From an uncultured Verrucomicrobiae bacterium (lineage in GTDB: Bacteria > Chlamydiota > Chlamydiia > Chlamydiales > Rhabdochlamydiaceae): 64,000 nt of DNA. The stretch spans positions 1 to 64,000 of the forward strand of contig OY970364.1 of NCBI GenBank assembly GCA_963718565.1, read 5' to 3'. Position numbers and translations under genes: made by a program. Under the pieces are notes generated by a model, which saw only the letters and a program-made list of their open reading frames with translations, had not been told where the DNA came from and searched no databases. Numbering within the stretch: position 1 is the first letter of the stretch; the number at the start of each line of letters is the position of its first letter. Positions 36,553 to 48,992 of the stretch are shown piece by piece.

Positions 36553-37518
36553 ATGCAACACACAAATGACCTGAAGTTTCTCACCAAAGAGAATGTTCCT
36601 GTTAATCTGTCTTTATGGAATCAAATCGGTCCTTTTTTATTATTGGGCGCTTTCACCCTTCTTATTTTCAGGTATGCTCCCTTCTTCTCGCTGCTTCTTT
36701 TGACCTCGATTGTCGGTTACGCAGCTAATCTATTTTGGAAAAAAAGGGGATTTTATTTTTCTTTATTTAGCCTCATGGCTGTATCGATTTATACCATCCG
36801 ATCAGGCGTAGATCCTTTCTGGTCTTCTCTGTTCTCTGCTTCGATCGCGCTATCCTGGCTGCTCATATTTTTAGGAAAACAGGAATTCGAAACCCTTTCT
36901 TCGGGTCGAGAAGAAAACATTAAGATTCTTAAGGAAAGATGTGAAACCCTTTCGCAAGACATCTTTGCTTATCAACGCAAGGAAATCGCTTTCCAACACG
37001 GTCTTGAAGATGCACAGTCCCAGCTTTTAAAACTGAAAAATCAACTATACTGCAATCAGCCTGTCGAACAGAATAAGGAAAGCAAACCCGTTTCTGCGAA
37101 CATCATTCCTCAAGAAGAAAATGATCCGCAGGAAAAGGCGCGGCGAGAGCATGTCCAGCGTCAATATACTCTCCTTAGAGAGCAATTCGATGAAAAATCT
37201 GAGGCTCTCGACCAGGCGCGCAAAGATCTCTTTCGAGTCGAGAATGAACTTTTGGCATTACAAAGCATTTATCATGAAAAGACCTTAGAAATCCCTGAAG
37301 AAGATAGATTTCTAATGTCAGATTTGAAGAGGACAGAAGAGGAATGTGCTGAACTTGAGGCACAAGTCTTAGCTCTACAAGAATTGATTTCTGCGCTCCT
37401 TAGCCATAAGAAGCGTGCGGTCCGATCCCGCAAATCCCTAGACACTCAGGAAAGGCTACCTCTTTTGATCCAAGAAAAAATCGATCAGACCATCTCTAGT
37501 GATTCGACGTCAGGTTAA
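36553..37518 (+). CDS. Hypothetical membrane protein with C-terminal coiled coil
   Basis: About four hydrophobic segments followed by a Glu/Gln/Leu-rich heptad region. Confidence 0.65.
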   Translation: MQHTNDLKFLTKENVPVNLSLWNQIGPFLLLGAFTLLIFRYAPFFSLLLLTSIVGYAANLFWKKRGFYFSLFSLMAVSIYTIRSGVDPFWSSLFSASIALSWLLIFLGKQEFETLSSGREENIKILKERCETLSQDIFAYQRKEIAFQHGLEDAQSQLLKLKNQLYCNQPVEQNKESKPVSANIIPQEENDPQEKARREHVQRQYTLLREQFDEKSEALDQARKDLFRVENELLALQSIYHEKTLEIPEEDRFLMSDLKRTEEECAELEAQVLALQELISALLSHKKRAVRSRKSLDTQERLPLLIQEKIDQTISSDSTSG

Positions 37519-38405: not shown

Positions 38406-39170
38406 TTAATAACACACACGTTTCAAAATTAAGCCATGCGCAGGGGCGGTGATGCCAGCTAAGGTACGGTCTTTGCTTGCCAAGATCATCGGGATTTGAT
38501 CTGCCTTGATCTTTCCGCATCCCACGTAAGCAAGGGTCCCTGCGATATTACGCGCCATTCTAAATAGAAAATGATCGCCCGTCATACAAATGTTAAGACG
38601 GTTTTCAGAATGAAAGAGAATTTCAGTGTTCTCGATTCGGCAAATCGGATCGCGGTCCCACAGGGAGCGCTCATTGCAAAAGGCCGAAAAATCATAAGTG
38701 CCGATGAGGTATTCTGCGGCTTTTCTCATCTTTTCGATATCTAAAAAATATGGGAAGTGCCAGGAAGTATGACGGAGAAATGGCAGCTGCAAAAATCCAT
38801 GGCAAATCTGATACCTATATTCTTTTTTCACACAAGAAAGCGTGGGATGGAAATCCTCGCGCATCTCTTCAGCGCTGACAACGGCGATTTCTTTAGGGAG
38901 CATTCCGGGGGAATTGCAATTCCCTCTTCCATTTAAACTAGACTGCAAGGACTTTAAACAAAGAACTTTTGAAGTCATGAAATTGACGACTTGTCCTTCG
39001 GCGTGGACTCCCGCATCAGTGCGGCTAGCAGCTTGAAGCTTGATTTCATGTTGAAGGATTTGCCGAAGAGCCTTTTCTAAAGTTTCCTCAATACTCGGCC
39101 CCATTTTGGTTTTTTGCCAACCCACAAAAGAGGCACCGAAATAGGTAATGACGAGTTTAATATTAGACAT
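38406..39170 (-). CDS. truA: tRNA pseudouridine(38-40) synthase with an 8-aa MITE-derived insertion
   Basis: ASRTDAGVHA, GTYDFSAF, FLFRMARNIAG, TAPAHGL; true start MSNIKL overlaps the marC stop (TAATG). Confidence 0.93.
   Translation of the reverse strand: MSNIKLVITYFGASFVGWQKTKMGPSIEETLEKALRQILQHEIKLQAASRTDAGVHAEGQVVNFMTSKVLCLKSLQSSLNGRGNCNSPGMLPKEIAVVSAEEMREDFHPTLSCVKKEYRYQICHGFLQLPFLRHTSWHFPYFLDIEKMRKAAEYLIGTYDFSAFCNERSLWDRDPICRIENTEILFHSENRLNICMTGDHFLFRMARNIAGTLAYVGCGKIKADQIPMILASKDRTLAGITAPAHGLILKRVCY
38907..38926. mobile_element. Minimal family A palindrome inserted in frame in truA
   Basis: GGGGGAATTGCAATTCCCTC flanked by TTCC on both sides; 20+4 = 24 bp. Confidence 0.85.
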
Positions 39171-39997
39171 TACTTGGAAACGTAGTTTATACCGAAACAA
39201 CATGAAGAATCGGTTTTTGGCTGCGCTGGACATCCCAGATTTTGATCCCGGCTGCATCTCACAACTTGTTCAGTGTGCCTGCTTCCCTGACAAAAGAGCA
39301 ATCGTGCTCTTTTGTAAGTGTCCGCAGCGCCGCCGCTTCGCTGGTTCAAACTCCGGGCGCCAGCTTTGCCAAAATCTCGATTCTTCATGTTGTTTCGGTA
39401 TACGAACATATCGGTTCCTTCGAGGAACATCTGCACAGCGATCAACGTCAAGATTAGGCCCATCAATCTTTCACAAGCGACAAGGCCGCGCCATCCTAAA
39501 AGTTTCTTCCATAAAGAAGAACTGAGCAAAATCAGTGTCGAGGCTGCCCACGCAATGACGATAGCGCACAGAGGGAGCATTAAATCATTGTTGTGCTGGC
39601 CTGAATAGAGCATGACAGCGGCCAAAACCGCAGGACCAGCAACTAGAGGGGTTGCCAATGGAACGATGAAGGGTTCTTTATCGTGGGGAAGTTCAACGTC
39701 TGGATCTCTTCTACCCGGGAAAATCATTTTTAAAGCGATGAGGAAGAGAATGATTCCTCCTGAGATGAGGATTGTCGGCATTGTGACGTTGAGAAAACCG
39801 AGCAAAGCATCACCGATAAAATAGAACAGGATGATGATGATGAGCGCAATGATGAGTTCGCGGATAATGATTTTGTGATGTCGGCTCGCATCAATGTCTT
39901 TTAGTACCGAAACAAAAATTGGGACGTTTCCGATGGGATCCATCAGCAAAAAAAGCGCAAGCGCCATTGAGAACATATGCATCCACCAGGAGTCCAT
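39170..39997 (-). CDS. marC: MarC family membrane protein with a 71-aa in-frame MITE insertion
   Basis: MDPIGNVPIF, GGIILFLIA, VPLATPLVAGP, ERLMGLIL; 275 aa minus the 71-aa insert gives 204 aa. Confidence 0.9.
   Translation of the reverse strand: MDSWWMHMFSMALALFLLMDPIGNVPIFVSVLKDIDASRHHKIIIRELIIALIIIILFYFIGDALLGFLNVTMPTILISGGIILFLIALKMIFPGRRDPDVELPHDKEPFIVPLATPLVAGPAVLAAVMLYSGQHNNDLMLPLCAIVIAWAASTLILLSSSLWKKLLGWRGLVACERLMGLILTLIAVQMFLEGTDMFVYRNNMKNRDFGKAGARSLNQRSGGAADTYKRARLLFCQGSRHTEQVVRCSRDQNLGCPAQPKTDSSCCFGINYVSK
39188..39402. mobile_element. MITE family F (TA-flanked, IS630-like ends) inside marC
   Basis: 25-bp perfect TIR TATACCGAAACAACATGAAGAATCG / CGATTCTTCATGTTGTTTCGGTATA. Confidence 0.9.
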
Positions 39998-40014
39998 ATT
40001 TTACATCCCCTCTC

Positions 40015-41052
40015 TTATATGGATTCAGTTTCAATAATATCCCATAATTGATTTAAGAAACAGATCTGCCTTTCTTCAAGCGGGAATAGAAATAAAAGGA
40101 AGTCGTGATTTTTGCTAAAAGCCGCTTTTGTCCAATTGGCAGACCCCATCACGAGGATTTCTTCATCGATGACTGCCCATTTATGGTGCAAGAGCTCCTT
40201 TCCTTGGCTTAAAAAAAGACTTATCCCCTGCTTTTCTAATGTTTGGATCATTTTTTTGCTTGCGCCGCGGGCAGTATAAGCGTCCACTGCGATTGAGATA
40301 GCGATGCCGCGTCTTTTTGCGCACGAAAGCGCTTCGCCGATTTCAGGGTGCGTCAATGTGAACATGGCAATGGTGATTTTTCTTTTTGCCCTATTAATAG
40401 TATCGATGAGGCGAGAAAACCCGGTTTTGAGAGGATCTGGGAGGAGATAGAGCTCGCCTTGCTGGCGCTCGACCTTAAAAAAATAAGAAGTTGCCGTTGG
40501 ACACTCCAGGAAGGCAGCAAGTTGAGGATGATAAAGACCTACGACGAAATTCGCATGATGGTGTAAAGAAGTTGGAGTGAGATTGGCCGTGCCTAAAAAG
40601 ACCTGGGCTTTATCGACGAGGATGATTTTGCGGTGCATCAATCCCGATGTTTTAATAGGATGAATATGAACTGAAGAGGGCAGTAATTTTTTTAAAGGCG
40701 CAGAAGCTGAAGGGTCGTATTCAACAGAGATGGGAAAATTTTCAGAAGTTTTTTTGCGAATGGTGGCGAGGATCTCGGAATCTGTGATCCCATAAACACT
40801 TAAAAAAATGGACTGGTTGGCCTGATTTAAGGCTTGAAGGAATGTGAGCTTGATATCTTGTCGAGTCTGGTTTGAATAAAACCGGATCGGATGGTCTTGA
40901 TCAGGTAACCTGGCCCGCGTCGCAGAAAAAACAACCCAGGCGTAGAAACAAGCAAAACCGCCTATCAAGGAAAAGAACAAGACCCAACGGGGGATTTTTT
41001 TAATAGACGGTGACAGTGAAAGGGCTAATTTAAATACGTTCGCCTTTGGCAC
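40015..41052 (-). CDS. Phospholipase D family protein (two HKD motifs)
   Basis: MHRKIILVD...GTANLT and LHHKWAVID...GSANWT; N-terminal TM anchor. Confidence 0.88.
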   Translation of the reverse strand: MPKANVFKLALSLSPSIKKIPRWVLFFSLIGGFACFYAWVVFSATRARLPDQDHPIRFYSNQTRQDIKLTFLQALNQANQSIFLSVYGITDSEILATIRKKTSENFPISVEYDPSASAPLKKLLPSSVHIHPIKTSGLMHRKIILVDKAQVFLGTANLTPTSLHHHANFVVGLYHPQLAAFLECPTATSYFFKVERQQGELYLLPDPLKTGFSRLIDTINRAKRKITIAMFTLTHPEIGEALSCAKRRGIAISIAVDAYTARGASKKMIQTLEKQGISLFLSQGKELLHHKWAVIDEEILVMGSANWTKAAFSKNHDFLLFLFPLEERQICFLNQLWDIIETESI

Positions 41053-45822: not shown

Positions 45823-46705
45823 TGAGGCGCTTTTCGCTATGAGAATAGAGTTCTGGATGATATTTTCGTAAGAAGCGAGATAAGCGTTGTGTTTTGTTGA
45901 TGATTTCTTTTTTATAATTGCTGGGATTTTTTACTGTCTCATCGTAATCAAAGGAGCTTAAGTCTAACGTGACGGCTTTCTCATCTATAAACCCAAAGTT
46001 ATTTCTTAAGGAATGGTCGTAATCGCGGAGGCCTTGTTTACAAAGGGTGAGAAGGCAATTGAGAAAATCGTCAATACATTGTTTAGCTTCGTCCATTTTC
46101 TTTTGTTTTGATAGGTATTGCAGATGCGGAAAGAGAAGATCAGCCCTTTTTTGAACCACGAATTCCGTTTTGTCCAAGTCAATGGTATGGTGGATGCCAA
46201 TATTGTCGATCAAGGTCACGGGCTTATGTTTGCCTTGCGTCTTGTTTAAATGGACATAGAGAATTCCTGACCGCTCTTTTGCTTGGGTATAGAGCAGCAT
46301 ACAGCTTTTAAAATTGAATTCTTGAAAATAAGGAACATTTTGAGGCCAAGGGTCGCTCTGGAGAAAGAGTTTTTTAAATGAAAATTTCTTAAAGAAGGAA
46401 GAGAGAAGGAGATGCGAGTGCTTATAGAATTTGAGAACAGTGTGTTGATCTTCTCCCAAAAAGGCAAAGCACCAACCTCCAGATCCTAAAAAAGTAAAGG
46501 ATTGGCCGAGAAGTTTGTCGATATTTTTTTGTTCTTCATCAGTCAGTGGGGGCGCTTCCCAACGCGGTTCATTGGGAAGATTGGATAGGATTAGATAGGG
46601 GCGGAATCCATGCGTTTGCTTTAGACAAAACAAATAGAGACCTGTAAATAAGGTTGACAATATTAAAAAATAAAAAGAGATGCGCACTGTTTTTTTGAGG
46701 ACCAT
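45788..46705 (-). CDS. Membrane-anchored protein-kinase-like hypothetical protein (paralogue of the adjacent gene)
   Basis: N-terminal TM; FLGSGGWCFAF...TVLKF, DYDHSLRNNFG, VTLDLS; shares LHxNxx..KxVxLxD and F.xQxxADL motifs with its neighbour. Confidence 0.6.
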   Translation of the reverse strand: MVLKKTVRISFYFLILSTLFTGLYLFCLKQTHGFRPYLILSNLPNEPRWEAPPLTDEEQKNIDKLLGQSFTFLGSGGWCFAFLGEDQHTVLKFYKHSHLLLSSFFKKFSFKKLFLQSDPWPQNVPYFQEFNFKSCMLLYTQAKERSGILYVHLNKTQGKHKPVTLIDNIGIHHTIDLDKTEFVVQKRADLLFPHLQYLSKQKKMDEAKQCIDDFLNCLLTLCKQGLRDYDHSLRNNFGFIDEKAVTLDLSSFDYDETVKNPSNYKKEIINKTQRLSRFLRKYHPELYSHSEKRLNEIMEIDALEE

Positions 46706-47828
46706 ATACTCTAGAAAATTGAAGTCTGGAGAGGATTGAGTTCAATTGTTTGGAAATTGTCGTTAATTCGCTTTTTCAGCATGTCTTTTAAATTAATAAC
46801 GCCAGTGTTGAAAAAATCTCTAATTTTCTCAGTAAATTCATTGAATTTTGAATACAGTGTATTATAAGTAACACACTCTCTCATAACTTTCCATAAACGC
46901 TCAATAGCATTCAAATTTGGGGAATACGGAGGTAAGTAGTGTATTTGAATTTTGGTTTGGCTATCCAAATATTTTTGCACTTCCTTATTCTTGTTTGATC
47001 TGCCGTTGTCTAAGATTAAGTGGATTTTTTTTGCATCTGTATTAGCCGCTAACGTTTGGAGAAAATCGACCGCACTTGCAGCATCCACAGTGCTATATTC
47101 CTTCGTCACGACTTGCATTGCAGTCAATTCAATGGCACCAATAAAATGCAATCGCTCTTGCTTAGCGGTTGTTCCTAATGTCTTTATTTCGTTTTTTAGG
47201 ATCCACCCAGCCACAGACTGGCTCTGATACTCAGGGTGTACAGCATCTCCAAAGAAAATTTTCTCGCCTTCTTGGAGACCGGCTTTCAATTCATTGTATT
47301 TTTTAAGGAACGCAGCTTGTTTTTCGGGATCGAGCTTTCCTGGTACTTTGATTGGATGTTTATAAACAAATCCATGCCTCTTCAACCAATTTGTCATACC
47401 AGCCACAGTGTATTTCACTTGATATGCGTCTAGAACGTAGAGACAAATTTTGCTCATTTTGAGATACGTTATTTGACTCAAATGTCTCCTCAGCGCATCT
47501 TCTTGGTCTAGGGTTAACTTGGAGGCCTTTCCCAAATGTGGATCATTGATAGTTTTTTGCTTGGCATCGTATTCTCTTTGATAATCATAAACGGACGACT
47601 CGCTAATTCTTAAAATCGCCGCTATTTCCCCTGGACTGTGGCAATCATCCCTACCTAAAATGACGCATACACGGTTCCGTTCGTTGACATCTCTTGTTTT
47701 TTTTACAAGCTGTTCTAAATATAAACGCTGCTCATTGGACAACTTTTGCATAGAAGCATTATCCACTATCGCTGAAATATTTTTTAGGGAAATTTAAAAT
47801 TTTACAGAATCCAATCATGAATAGTATA
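46705..47828 (-). mobile_element. IS630-family insertion sequence, apparently intact
   Basis: Imperfect TIRs TATACTCTAGAAAATTGAAGTCTG / CAGAATCCAATCATGAATAGTATA with TA at each end. Confidence 0.88.
46711..47766 (-). CDS. IS630 DDE transposase
   Basis: FFGDAVHP, LILDNG, YLPPYSPNLNAIERLWK; N-terminal HTH. Confidence 0.93.
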   Translation of the reverse strand: MDNASMQKLSNEQRLYLEQLVKKTRDVNERNRVCVILGRDDCHSPGEIAAILRISESSVYDYQREYDAKQKTINDPHLGKASKLTLDQEDALRRHLSQITYLKMSKICLYVLDAYQVKYTVAGMTNWLKRHGFVYKHPIKVPGKLDPEKQAAFLKKYNELKAGLQEGEKIFFGDAVHPEYQSQSVAGWILKNEIKTLGTTAKQERLHFIGAIELTAMQVVTKEYSTVDAASAVDFLQTLAANTDAKKIHLILDNGRSNKNKEVQKYLDSQTKIQIHYLPPYSPNLNAIERLWKVMRECVTYNTLYSKFNEFTEKIRDFFNTGVINLKDMLKKRINDNFQTIELNPLQTSIF

Positions 47829-47845
47829 TACTGCAACCATTATTT

Positions 47846-48379
47846 CTAATTGCGTGGGGTTTTGTCTTTGAGGAGATGTGCTTCGGGTAATTCGAGAGTG
47901 AGGAAGCGGCGCTTGCGGTCCTGGCCCATTCCAAGGGAGAGGAACAAGGCTTTGCCTTGAATCTTGAAACCTTTTTCTGGTTCATCGTAAAAAAGAGAAA
48001 ACCAGTCCCGTTTCCAGGCCCGAAATTTGGGCCAACCCATCTGTTTGCCTTTCCGTTTTCCTTTTTTTGATTTTTGATGAACCCGGATTGCTTCACTAAG
48101 TCTCAAAGCGGTATTTTTTAATGGAGAAGAGTGGACGACTTTTAGAAAGGGGTGCTCTTCCTTGAGTTTTGGAAGTTCATTTCTGAGTCCTCTTTCTGTA
48201 TAGAGGGTCTTTGATGCCTCCGGGTTGCCGGAATGGATAAATTCCCGCTTGAGTTCCAGGCTTTTTTCTAGCAGATGATTATAAAGCCAATTACAGATCC
48301 GCGATTGCCCATCGAGCTCAGAAATTGTTTGAGGGTCTGCTTCAATTCTCAGCTTAAGAACCAGATTCTCTTTAGACAT
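47846..48379 (-). pseudogene. tnpB: Truncated TnpB (HTH and N-terminal part only, no RuvC)
   Basis: CNWLYNHLL, LPKLKEEHPFLKVVHSSPLKN, GWPKFR; stops after about 177 aa. Confidence 0.85.
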
Positions 48380-48992
48380 TGGCGACCGCATTTTGAAGGT
48401 TGGCCAAAAGCTGTTTGTTCTTATGGCTTCTTGAACCATATAGCCTTGCAGAAAAGACGGTAATGATTTCCAAAACGTCTTTGGCAAGTTCCTCCTCGAA
48501 GGAAGGTTCGTCTCCCTGGTTGGTAATCACCACTTCGACATTTTTGACTGCGCAAAGAGAGAAGACAAGCTCTGCTCCGAATCGCAAAAGGCGGTCTTTA
48601 TGCGTGAGAACCAGGCGGCCAATCTCTCCGTTCATAATTTGCTCAAGCAGTTGTTTTAGCCCACGTTTATTATAGTTCATCCCGGAACCGAGGTCTTTGG
48701 TTACTGAAAACACCCATCCTTTTGCAGAGCAGTAAATTTCTAACATATGGACTTGTCGTTGTAAATCTTCTTTTTGATCATGACTCGAAACTCTTGCGTA
48801 GGCAACAGTTAGACGATCAGAGGTTTTATCTCCGCAATTAAATGGCTGTAACTGAGTGAGACTATAGCGGCGTTGGCCGCCCTGTGTGCGATGACAGGGA
48901 ACGATTTTCTTTTGTCTTTCCCATCGGCGGAGTGTTTGTGGAGACACTCCCAAACATTTTGCTGCTTCCTGAATGCTTAAAAACTTGTTCAT
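48372..48992 (-). CDS. tnpA: IS607 serine recombinase transposase TnpA
   Basis: MerR-like HTH (EAAKCLGVSPQTLRRW) before YARVSSHDQKEDL, DLGSGMN, HKDRLLRFG, VFSARLYG. Confidence 0.95.
   Translation of the reverse strand: MNKFLSIQEAAKCLGVSPQTLRRWERQKKIVPCHRTQGGQRRYSLTQLQPFNCGDKTSDRLTVAYARVSSHDQKEDLQRQVHMLEIYCSAKGWVFSVTKDLGSGMNYNKRGLKQLLEQIMNGEIGRLVLTHKDRLLRFGAELVFSLCAVKNVEVVITNQGDEPSFEEELAKDVLEIITVFSARLYGSRSHKNKQLLANLQNAVANV

Follow-up and report, generated by a model that had tools for sequence, protein, structure and literature searches.

In the window, the 64,000-nucleotide stretch of chlamydial DNA that was analysed, the gene marC lies on the minus strand directly ahead of truA, and its last codons contain a complete MITE, through which the reading frame stays open. 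The features of the locus are:

39170..39997, minus strand: marC open reading frame with the insert, 275 aa plus stop; Pfam MarC (PF01914) at aa 6-197, E 7.9e-53
39401..39997, minus strand: 199 codons of native MarC ahead of the insert, ending ...DMFV
39401..39402, no strand: TA target-site duplication on the marC side, the last two bases of the GTA codon of V199
39378..39402, no strand: inverted-repeat arm, 23-nt TIR plus TA, partner of 39188..39212
39190..39400, no strand: the MITE itself, 211 bp, TACCG...CGGTA, an A-type copy
39287..39318, no strand: internal 14-bp hairpin, within the ~44-bp segment that separates A-type (~211 bp) from B-type (169 bp) copies
39188..39400, minus strand: 71 inserted codons, YRNNMKNRDFGKAGARSLNQRSGG...DSSCCFGI
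39188..39212, no strand: inverted-repeat arm, TA plus 23-nt TIR, 25 nt, 100% complementary to its partner
39188..39189, no strand: TA target-site duplication on the truA side
39170..39187, minus strand: probable native MarC tail NYVSK and stop TAA
38406..39170, minus strand: truA, 254 aa, start MSNIKLVITYFG

On the minus strand the native codons GAT ATG TTC GTA run directly into TAC CGA AAC AAC ATG of the element, and the last inserted codons, TTC GGT ATA, are followed by AAC TAC GTT TCC AAG TAA TG. The insertion point thus lies between GTA and AAC, five codons ahead of the stop. The marC stop TAA (39172-39170) and the truA ATG (39170-39168) have one base in common (TAATG), and Pfam assigns the product of the downstream ORF to PseudoU_synth_1. 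The termini of the MITE begin TACCGAAAC. A repeat search recovers the arms 39188-39212 and 39378-39402 with 100% complementarity, in line with a preceding sequence-only reading that described a TA-flanked element with a perfect 25-bp TIR. What that reading called a 213-bp MITE is a real insertion, but 213 bp is the net gain, whereas the element proper measures 211 bp, or 215 bp with both TA dinucleotides. The net gain, comprising the element and one TA, corresponds to 71 stop-free codons; frame arithmetic on the 275-aa ORF (275-71) returns the anticipated 204-aa MarC ending in NYVSK, and the minus-strand sequence agrees with the claim that the extra codons are open and that the old stop still overlaps the truA start. 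Among 5000 composition-matched shuffles the marC frame is open through the element in only 2.5%, and 1.5% have at least two open frames. Beyond MarC, no Pfam family is detected in the 275-aa host protein. A scan of 38900-40200 places neither a promoter-like nor a terminator-like site in the element, and an Rfam search of 39100-39500 returns two sub-threshold miRNA matches only.

Chlamydial orthologues of MarC are 193-207 aa long and, as had been predicted, the extension is present in none of the 22 that were aligned. In this alignment the insertion point is found two residues past the last conserved F. MarC without its insert shares 94% aa identity with the closest orthologue (L045), with a dS of 0.51 and a dN/dS of 0.05, a ratio that covers all the time since the split from L045 and not the time since the insertion. 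The marC and truA genes are neighbours in most of 55 chlamydial loci. No conspecific genome with an empty marC site was found, and a DNA-level empty site could not be rebuilt from other species, the MarC tail being too diverged. Because the tail is too variable for such a reconstruction, the assignment of NYVSK plus stop as the native tail draws on its protein-level likeness to the tail of one orthologue (L042, ...DMFMKNYPVK plus stop), which suggests that these residues are the original C-terminus.

Misplacement of a repeat copy into marC during assembly, or mis-polishing of its length, is extremely improbable. The genome has the look of a single contig derived from a metagenome, the relatives found are MAGs, and repeats break short-read contigs; however, the marC copy carries substitutions of its own and a 2-bp deletion with respect to a 213-bp sister copy, and its TA duplications are exact. 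The junctions were compared with short Logan contigs from four runs of soil or other metagenomes, which are possibly the assembly's own source, and contigs over 39257-39475 show 0 differences. One short-read contig (39300-39475, 0 differences) crosses the junction on the marC side, but none bridges that on the truA side (39188), where all contigs reaching the element end ran on into other sequence. An empty marC site was not seen in the short contigs of these four runs.

A similarity search with the marC element gives 74 matches in its own 2.28-Mb genome. The family comprises, besides fragments, 37 full-length TIR-bounded copies in four sub-families, with a full copy defined by the pairing of at least 15 of 20 terminal bases at the two ends. 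Copy sizes range from 143 to 288 bp, and TA is present on both flanks in 35 of the 37. The marC copy is 93-94% identical to its two sister copies. Outside this genome, the element has DNA-level matches in 20 of 40 related genomes and in 11 of 18 congeners. Size, lack of a transposase gene, TIR, target-site duplication, dispersed copies and presence or absence in relatives all correspond to those of a MITE, and the copy number together with the regular TA flanks confirms that the element is mobile, TA-targeting and non-autonomous, as proposed. The A- and B-type copies have element frame 0 open in both orientations, whereas 15 of 17 D-type copies are closed in all six frames, and D-type copies bring a TGA after three codons. 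Sub-families with a net length that is a multiple of three and a stop-free frame sit inside genes and the all-frame-closed one is not in frame there, a contrast that is partly circular because genic copies were recognised by their open frame.

The parentage of the MITE is indicated by an IS in a related chlamydial genome (L341 in G030), which encodes a DDE_3 plus HTH_33 transposase of the IS630 family. Both ends of this IS begin TATACCG and are TA-flanked, and its left end, TATACCGAAACAACTTAAAGAAT, agrees with the MITE TIR in 21 of 23 positions. The IS occurs once, in a genome of another chlamydial family, and its boundaries are taken from its inverted ends alone. The match therefore supports the earlier designation of the element as IS630-type with a TA target. 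The window also contains a resident IS of the same family:

46704..47830, minus strand: resident IS630-family IS, transposase at 46711-47766; not itself a close match to the MITE ends

This resident IS is present in 15 near-identical copies with ends TATACTCTAGAAAATTGAAG and TATACTATTCATGATTGG, unlike the MITE TIR, and its transposase is 41% identical to that of the G030 IS (E 1e-73). By repeat and end comparison, no autonomous partner with matching ends was found in this genome. An exact-TIR scan of a collection of genome contigs gives 15 loci, all of them MITEs or solo ends with no adjoining transposase. TIR pairs 0.5-2.5 kb apart, considered as candidate autonomous elements, are separate MITEs flanking ordinary genes, and none of the large repeats considered as partners (DDE_Tnp_1 of three kinds, Mutator-type, TnpB-like, rve, DDE_5 and IS630-family) has ends that match. 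A profile of mariner Transposase_1 (PF01359) had no match, and its control likewise matched nowhere.

The marC insertion is not isolated. At least three further in-frame copies are found in conserved genes of this genome, encoding a CPBP protease, an MFS transporter and a secreted protein, with uninterrupted orthologues in congeners. In the CPBP protease, 12 of 18 congeners align to aa 2-79 and 134-357 as abutting segments. The MFS transporter of G004 begins MKQKLSSLLVLATFF, where G000 has MKQKL, 57 aa and SSLLILATFF. In the secreted protein the insert separates MKKFV from the hydrophobic core and is absent in all three orthologues examined. A fourth further copy is located at the start of ybeY, where the gene caller begins YbeY at an ATG within the TIR. 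With the inserted peptide as query, in-frame copies were also found in congeners, in a RecD-like helicase, an FKBP protein and two others. A profile of the peptide matches 245 predicted protein clusters in public data at E<=1e-3, these predicted proteins being gene-caller output and no proof of translation. Among the matches listed (150 of the 245 clusters), 41 have at least 200 aa, 20 of these with Pfam domains, and peptide-bearing clusters include MutL, TrmH, LplA and MnmE; also among the matches listed, the peptide lies within the domain envelope of SpoU, LplA-B_cat, 5-FTHF ligase and Lant_dehydr_N. The behaviour postulated from the marC locus, like that of the Rickettsia palindromic elements (RPEs), thus recurs in conserved genes here, in congeners and in the public clusters.

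The in-frame copies have a common hydrophilic peptide, Y(R/P)NN(M/L)KN..FGK.GA...SSC(C/L)(F/G)I, and the five copies here and the four examined in congeners share orientation and frame; moreover, the family has more open frames than expected from shuffles. These features would be expected if the peptide had been co-opted as a functional C-terminal module of MarC, and likewise in its other hosts, and were selected for its own sequence. Such co-option is nevertheless very unlikely. The orientation of the congener copies is biased, because the search used a peptide query. The hosts and sites are unrelated (N-terminus, signal peptide, mid-membrane loop and C-terminus), peptide identity between sub-families is no more than 36-42%, and the inserted peptide is predicted to be disordered. 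All ten protein clusters that were checked are singletons, so that no insertion is demonstrated as old and conserved. In the one reported test, on the RPE insert in gmk, a review describes the insert as neutral or slightly detrimental.

The most satisfactory explanation, and one that we hold with considerable confidence, is that an IS630-derived MITE entered a TA in the marC tail, that the gene was kept open, and that the insert is read through as a tolerated passenger. In this mechanism a non-autonomous, IS630-family-derived MITE integrated at a TA within the last marC codons, at a point where the last helix of the MarC domain has ended and the protein tail is variable. The net 213 bp keeps the frame, and the element is free of stops in the frame set by the TA at codon positions 2-3. 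Net length, stop-free frame and variable site together would therefore have left marC open, with the old stop and the truA overlap kept. The most likely product would be a MarC that carries, close to its C-terminus, 71 additional hydrophilic residues, probably disordered. In an AlphaFold2 model of this protein the core has pLDDT values of 70-88, and residues 209-275 are below 50. The insert would be tolerated as a passenger, presumably neutral, and would not serve a new function. Coupling to truA may have favoured an insertion that can be read through, and the same sieve would act genome-wide, with frame-keeping, stop-free sub-families persisting inside genes.

At the RNA level the MITE folds into a single long hairpin of -109.8 kcal/mol (z -11.7), and translation of the insert, which is assumed by analogy, would have to proceed through this structure of about -110 kcal/mol. 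The stability of the hairpin also lends some weight to an opposite reading, in which the insertion has killed or crippled marC through cleavage, stalling or termination on the mRNA and the gene is a young, undecayed nascent pseudogene. The insertion is lineage-specific, since no relative shares it, and MarC is generally non-essential. ERIC elements in Yersinia are reported in the review literature to destabilise the mRNA upstream of them. Loss of marC is, however, unlikely in view of its 275 codons without stop or frameshift, where shuffles stay open in only the small fraction given above. Since its identity to the sister copies is only 93-94%, the marC copy is not very recent; in-frame copies occur in three or more other conserved genes, and public data show the same peptide again in housekeeping enzymes. 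A truncating insertion would, in addition, uncouple truA. Read-through of a tolerated passenger accordingly remains the preferred reading for marC.

In-frame MITE fusions are already known from Rickettsia, Coxiella, enterobacteria and Neisseria (PMC10969869, PMC2229807, PMC5896051, PMC3184786), and a passage of a 2024 review calls them 'not unusual' (PMC10969869); the chlamydial element is a further case of this kind. A close parallel is provided by the RPEs, for which PMC10969869 and PMC2229807 summarise the work of Ogata et al. (2000, 2002). These are small repeats that form hairpins, and their hosts are likewise obligate intracellular bacteria; they lie in frame within conserved, unrelated genes, add a few dozen residues, fall into several sub-families and in some cases have TA at their termini. 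The likeness is one of behaviour. Differences from the RPEs are the length of the TIR (23 nt, versus ~12), the regular TA duplication (35/37) and an autonomous relative that can be named, of the IS630 family. Translation, furthermore, is demonstrated for the RPE host gmk according to the same reviews, and is predicted for the chlamydial insert.

ERIC/IRU elements are likewise described as MITEs with TIRs, TA at both termini and TATAC... ends, and also occur in frame within genes (PMC3184786, PMC2229807). A Vibrio cholerae ERIC copy shares its first 19 nt, base for base, with both ends of the C-type copies; these 19 nt have 17 exact matches in this genome, and the terminus pattern is also found in Vibrio, Shewanella and Enterovibrio. 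The chlamydial elements, however, measure 169-211 bp versus ~127 bp for ERIC (PMC3184786, PMC2229807). The ERIC central core is not found in this genome, a BLAST search with V. cholerae and E. coli ERIC copies matching nt 1-19/20 only, and the ERIC2 primer site of the E. coli copy has no counterpart in the chlamydial element.

The argument for parentage is of the same kind as that made for RUP of Streptococcus pneumoniae and IS630-Spn1, where the TIRs resemble an IS630-family IS and insertion is at TA; among the bacterial MITEs treated in the sections consulted of the 2007 review, RUP is the only one for which a matching IS is named (PMC2229807). RUP belongs to another phylum, differs in sequence, and is described there as intergenic and without ORF, unlike the in-frame chlamydial copies. 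QMITE1/2 of Coxiella burnetii resemble the present case in their intracellular host and in their location at 3' gene ends, where they alter C-terminal residues or supply a stop (PMC5896051); marC is also a 3'-end insertion, and the chlamydial D-type copies supply a TGA. In marC, in contrast, the frame crosses the element from end to end and then rejoins the native tail with its stop, and the family and phylum are different. The Correia/NEMIS elements of Neisseria share the TA target, TIRs of ~24 bp, and a division into an open short form fused to genes and an intergenic long form with stops in all frames, reminiscent of the split between A/B- and D-type copies (PMC2229807), although they are unrelated in sequence and occur in another host group. 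Within the literature searched, comprising titles and abstract starts with subscription journals outside the scope, no description of chlamydial MITEs was found, and the review PMC10969869 contains no word beginning 'Chlamyd'.

With the marC insertion, coding MITEs, a peculiarity for which Rickettsia is the textbook example, extend to another phylum of obligate intracellular bacteria that is unrelated to the first. Here a name can be given to the family of the transposase, and comparison can draw on many sites that are uninterrupted. How proteins tolerate 57-71 additional residues, be it in a loop, a signal peptide or a terminus, becomes testable, as does the question whether such inserts ever gain a function. 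For annotation, the pattern Y(R/P)NN(M/L)KN...SSC.GI in proteins of chlamydial MAGs denotes a transposon and not a lineage-specific domain, and start sites may be mis-called at an ATG inside the TIR, as at ybeY here. The termini common to ERIC are a lead toward the enzyme that moves ERIC-type elements. More tentatively, and with somewhat less than even confidence, these elements could form a phylum-wide superfamily of IS630-derived, TA-targeting MITEs in environmental Chlamydiota, routinely read through in housekeeping genes such as MutL, TrmH, LplA, MnmE, RecD and YidD. Such a superfamily, if real, would amount to a second 'RPE world', independent of the first, in intracellular bacteria unrelated to Rickettsia. 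On the same reading, because the termini equal Vibrio and enterobacterial ERIC ends, and because there are ISs of the IS630 family that end in this way, ERIC itself may be mobilised by that transposase clade.

The marC reading frame contains a complete MITE close to its 3′ end, arranged as follows:

39170-39997, reverse strand: marC ORF with the insert, 275 codons
39190-39400: MITE proper, TACCG...CGGTA, 211 bp as read from its ends
39188-39189 and 39401-39402: TA flanks of the MITE

Residues 6-197 of the 275-codon ORF match the MarC family (PF01914, E 7.9e-53). Beyond codon 199 (GTA, V) the ORF reads TAC CGA AAC AAC ATG AAG AAT CG..., and the insert ends 71 codons later with ...TTC GGT ATA, followed by the tail AAC TAC GTT TCC AAG TAA. 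The inverted arms found in a repeat search (39188-39212 and 39378-39402) are 25 nt long and 100% complementary, the TA flanks included, exactly the TA-flanked element with a perfect 25-bp inverted repeat that the sequence-only reading had described. Its account of the frame is likewise confirmed: the 71 extra codons are open, and translation would end at the native TAA (39172-39170), the last A of which is shared with the ATG of the downstream ORF, a TruA-type pseudouridine synthase (PF01416). The length of 213 bp given there for the MITE is correct for the net insertion, i.e. the MITE plus one TA, by which the marC frame is kept, but not for the element itself, which measures 211 bp; all its other descriptive statements hold. 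Ahead of the truA ATG the truA frame stays open for another 29 codons, reaching into the MITE, where an ATG occurs at 39257 (window 38406-39257, reverse strand); a gene caller could therefore extend truA into the MITE, overlapping marC.

Eighty related loci were retrieved, the closest being from Chlamydiota MAGs, some of them mislabelled Verrucomicrobia. In 27 of these the orthologous marC ORF was read to its stop; they encode 193-207 aa and none is extended. As had been anticipated, the insert is also absent from all 22 MarC orthologues aligned with the window protein. In this alignment the insertion point falls within a tail of variable length and sequence, two residues past the last phenylalanine that is conserved. 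The tail of one orthologue, ...DMFMKNYPVK* (L042), resembles ...DMFV-[insert]-NYVSK* in the window, which supports a single TA as the target and NYVSK* as the old MarC end. The empty site cannot be rebuilt at the DNA level from other species, because the MarC tails are too diverged. One short-read contig (record 13 of run X5) bridges the marC-side junction with 0 differences. For the 199 pre-insert codons, comparison with the closest orthologue gives a dN/dS of 0.05 at dS 0.51; on this measure marC is without sign of decay, the ratio spanning far more time than the insertion.

At the RNA level the MITE is predicted to form a single long hairpin (-109.8 kcal/mol, z -11.7). In an AlphaFold2 model based on the orthologue alignment, pLDDT is 70-88 over most of the MarC core, whereas residues 209-275 stay below 50. 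In most of 55 chlamydial loci truA lies within 40 nt of marC or overlaps it (16 overlaps), and a read-through insertion would therefore preserve any coupling present. This adjacency may explain why only a stop-free MITE copy persisted in marC. In four relatives (L042, L047, L067 and L071) truA does not abut marC but lies 1.3-1.7 kb downstream, so that something is inserted between the two genes.

The window covers the initial 64 kb of a single-contig genome (G000; 2,284,058 bp, 43.6% G+C), in which the marC MITE has 74 BLAST matches. A search for paired termini yields 37 distinct full copies, 35 of which have TA on both flanks. The family comprises:

A type: 3 copies, 210-213 bp, including the marC copy
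B type: 9 copies, 169-170 bp, TIR the same as in the A type
C type: 8 copies, TIR TACCCAAACAACTTGAAAAAT
D type: 17 copies, TIR TACCGAAATGAA
Mini-derivatives: G000:C1:575050-575074, 2280338-2280362, 478237-478283, 2042596-2042635 and 345887-345930

The A type differs from the B type by an additional internal segment, about 44 bp long, that contains a small hairpin. The marC copy is 2 bp short of its 213-bp sister copy, and thus its net length is a multiple of three. Of 40 related genomes, 20 contain DNA matches to the MITE, among them 11 of the 18 congeners, and copies of 157-160 bp with the same termini are present in other chlamydial MAGs. The mini-derivatives, TA-flanked and 26-47 bp long, consist of little more than one TIR, or of two abutting TIR pieces, and could be internal-deletion products or excision/repair footprints.

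When all copies were scanned for stop-free frames continuing into long ORFs, four further in-frame cases were obtained, all of the B type. A CPBP/Rce1-like protease (G000 2019832-2020905) has its insert between residues 78 and 135, and the two flanks match as abutting segments in 12 of the 18 congeners, so that the gene is uninterrupted there. An MFS transporter reads MKQKL-[57 aa]-SSLLILATFF, and its orthologue in the related genome G004 starts MKQKLSSLLVLATFF. In a secreted protein the insert separates MKKFV from the hydrophobic core of the signal peptide, and is absent from the 3 orthologues examined. In ybeY the MITE occupies the position of the relatives' start codon, and the public protein set has the YbeY start called at an ATG inside the TIR (P0006). 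Orientation and frame of the MITE are the same in marC and these four genes, and the peptide from the five copies is YRNNMKNR.FGKAGA.SLNQRSG...DSSCCFGI. Congeners have in-frame copies in a RecD-like helicase, an FKBP-domain protein, a secreted protein and the orthologue of window ORF 36553-37518 (forward strand). The latter orthologue, in G013 (L187:2262-3401), contains an in-frame C-type MITE following MNKALL; no MITE is present in the window ORF, which encodes a coiled-coil membrane protein without a Pfam family. In YidD of another organism the peptide follows codon 4 (P0007).

A profile of nine in-frame peptides, compared with 1.84 billion representative proteins, matches 245 proteins at E≤1e-3 and 34 at E≤1e-10. 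Among the 150 matches listed (of the 245), 41 are at least 200 aa long, 20 of which have a Pfam name: NusB, porphobilinogen deaminase, UvrD, two chorismate-binding enzymes, DNA polymerase III delta′, MnmE, a RING protein, SpoU/TrmH, LplA/B, two methyltransferases, an ABC transporter, lantibiotic dehydratase, shikimate kinase, OMP decarboxylase, 5-formyl-THF cyclo-ligase, GNAT, a protein kinase and MutL. For SpoU, LplA-B_cat, 5-FTHF ligase and Lant_dehydr_N, the domain envelope encloses the peptide. All 10 clusters looked up are singletons, and the only organism label among them is a Chlamydiia MAG. As predicted proteins, the matches represent open frames, not translation, and because the profile query fixes one orientation they are unusable for orientation statistics.

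Element frame 0 contains no stop in either orientation of the A and B copies, whereas in the D type (net length 172 in its common form) all six frames are closed in 15 of the 17 copies; no D-type copy reading through a gene was found among these 17 copies in G000. Composition-matched shuffles of the marC copy have the marC frame open in 2.5% of cases and at least two of the six frames open in 1.5%. The split between A/B and D resembles the pattern outlined for Correia elements in a review (PMC2229807), with an open short form fused to genes and a closed long form that is intergenic; the open/closed contrast in G000 is suggestive rather than a test, since the 'in a gene' class used the open frame itself. 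Long ORFs of 317, 526, 346, 139 and 104 codons enter a D-type end and stop three codons in, at the TGA of TACCGAAATGA (G000:C1:1426649, 1638410, 1422885, 1222277 and 2122688), and the stop codons of the neighbouring genes seem to come from these D-type copies. A 160-bp D-like variant (G000:C1:1422885-1423044, net 162 bp) has one open frame, which leads into an ORF of 383 codons whose start is signal-peptide-like; the sole in-frame ATG upstream of this ORF is within the TIR.

The resident IS630-family IS (about 1125 bp, DDE_3 and HTH_33 domains) is found at window positions 46704-47830 and in 14 other places in G000, its 15 copies being TA-flanked and 99.5-100% identical; its ends, TATACTCTAGAAAATTGAAG... 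and TATACTATTCATGATTGG..., differ from the MITE ends. None of the other large-repeat transposase families found in G000 is of a kind known to duplicate TA. A TnpB-like repeat (Cas12f1-like_TNB/OrfB_IS605; window 47848-48487 and beyond), with about 10 occurrences in G000, adjoins the IS630-family copy. Repeats of at least 500 bp at no less than 90% identity cover about 224 kb of G000, or some 10% of its 2.28 Mb; seven or more transposase types are represented among them (three kinds of DDE_Tnp_1, Mutator, rve, DDE_5 and IS630).

A scan of 81 genomes of the order for DDE_3 was followed by a search of 30 returned loci for the MITE terminus, which reveals one IS630-family IS with a matching terminus among those 30, in the related genome G030 (L341:144-1348). 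The left end of this IS, TATACCGAAACAACTTAAAGAAT, equals the A/B TIR at 21 of 23 positions, its right end also begins TATACCG, with a GGCAAGGCTG motif like the GGCAAAGCTGG of the MITE, and TA flanks both ends. Its transposase is 41% identical to the resident one (E 1e-73). As the IS is single-copy in G030, its limits are set by the inverted ends only. This terminus match in another chlamydial genome supports the designation of the MITE as IS630-type.

The degenerate MITE terminus also matches Vibrio, Shewanella and Enterovibrio. A V. cholerae copy (L258:1589-1719) shows 77% identity, over its full length, to E. coli repeats that are present in 5426 of 5426 E. coli genomes in a median of 7 places. 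The E. coli copy examined (L312:301-429) contains the ERIC2 primer site with 2 mismatches; the primer sequence used for this comparison appears in print in 161 papers. Over its first 19 nt the Vibrio ERIC is identical to both ends of C-type copies (17 exact matches); beyond the first 19-20 nt, the Vibrio ERIC compared has no match in G000. The chlamydial MITEs thus share termini with ERIC but are without the ERIC core, and are not ERIC members. By hand count, 18 of the first 21 bases agree between the left ends of the resident IS630-family IS and of the E. coli ERIC. Presumably, judging from these termini, a transposase clade is common to the chlamydial MITEs and ERIC; a literature search found no paper linking ERIC-type termini to an IS630-family IS. 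In L312 (E. coli NZ_CP030281.1 4085637-4086365) an ERIC copy interrupts an Rpn-family recombination-promoting nuclease gene, the two parts of which are annotated as partial pseudogenes.

The MITE insertion in marC is real and was correctly interpreted in the sequence-only reading. In-frame MITEs as such are already known in other bacteria: reviews call it 'not unusual' for MITE ORFs to be fused in frame with host ORFs, and name RPE, ERIC, BOX, QMITE and Anabaena MITEs (PMC10969869, PMC3184786, PMC2229807), and Coxiella QMITEs are described at the 3′ ends of functional genes (PMC5896051). A literature search gave no description of in-frame MITEs of Chlamydiota, and the 2024 review (PMC10969869) is without mention of this phylum. 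Of wider reach are two leads. One is how broadly in-frame copies are spread across Chlamydiota; the other is the link between IS630 and ERIC termini, in which the first 19-20 nt that Vibrio ERIC elements have in common with the chlamydial MITE ends and with the L341 IS end point towards a transposase family for ERIC-type elements.
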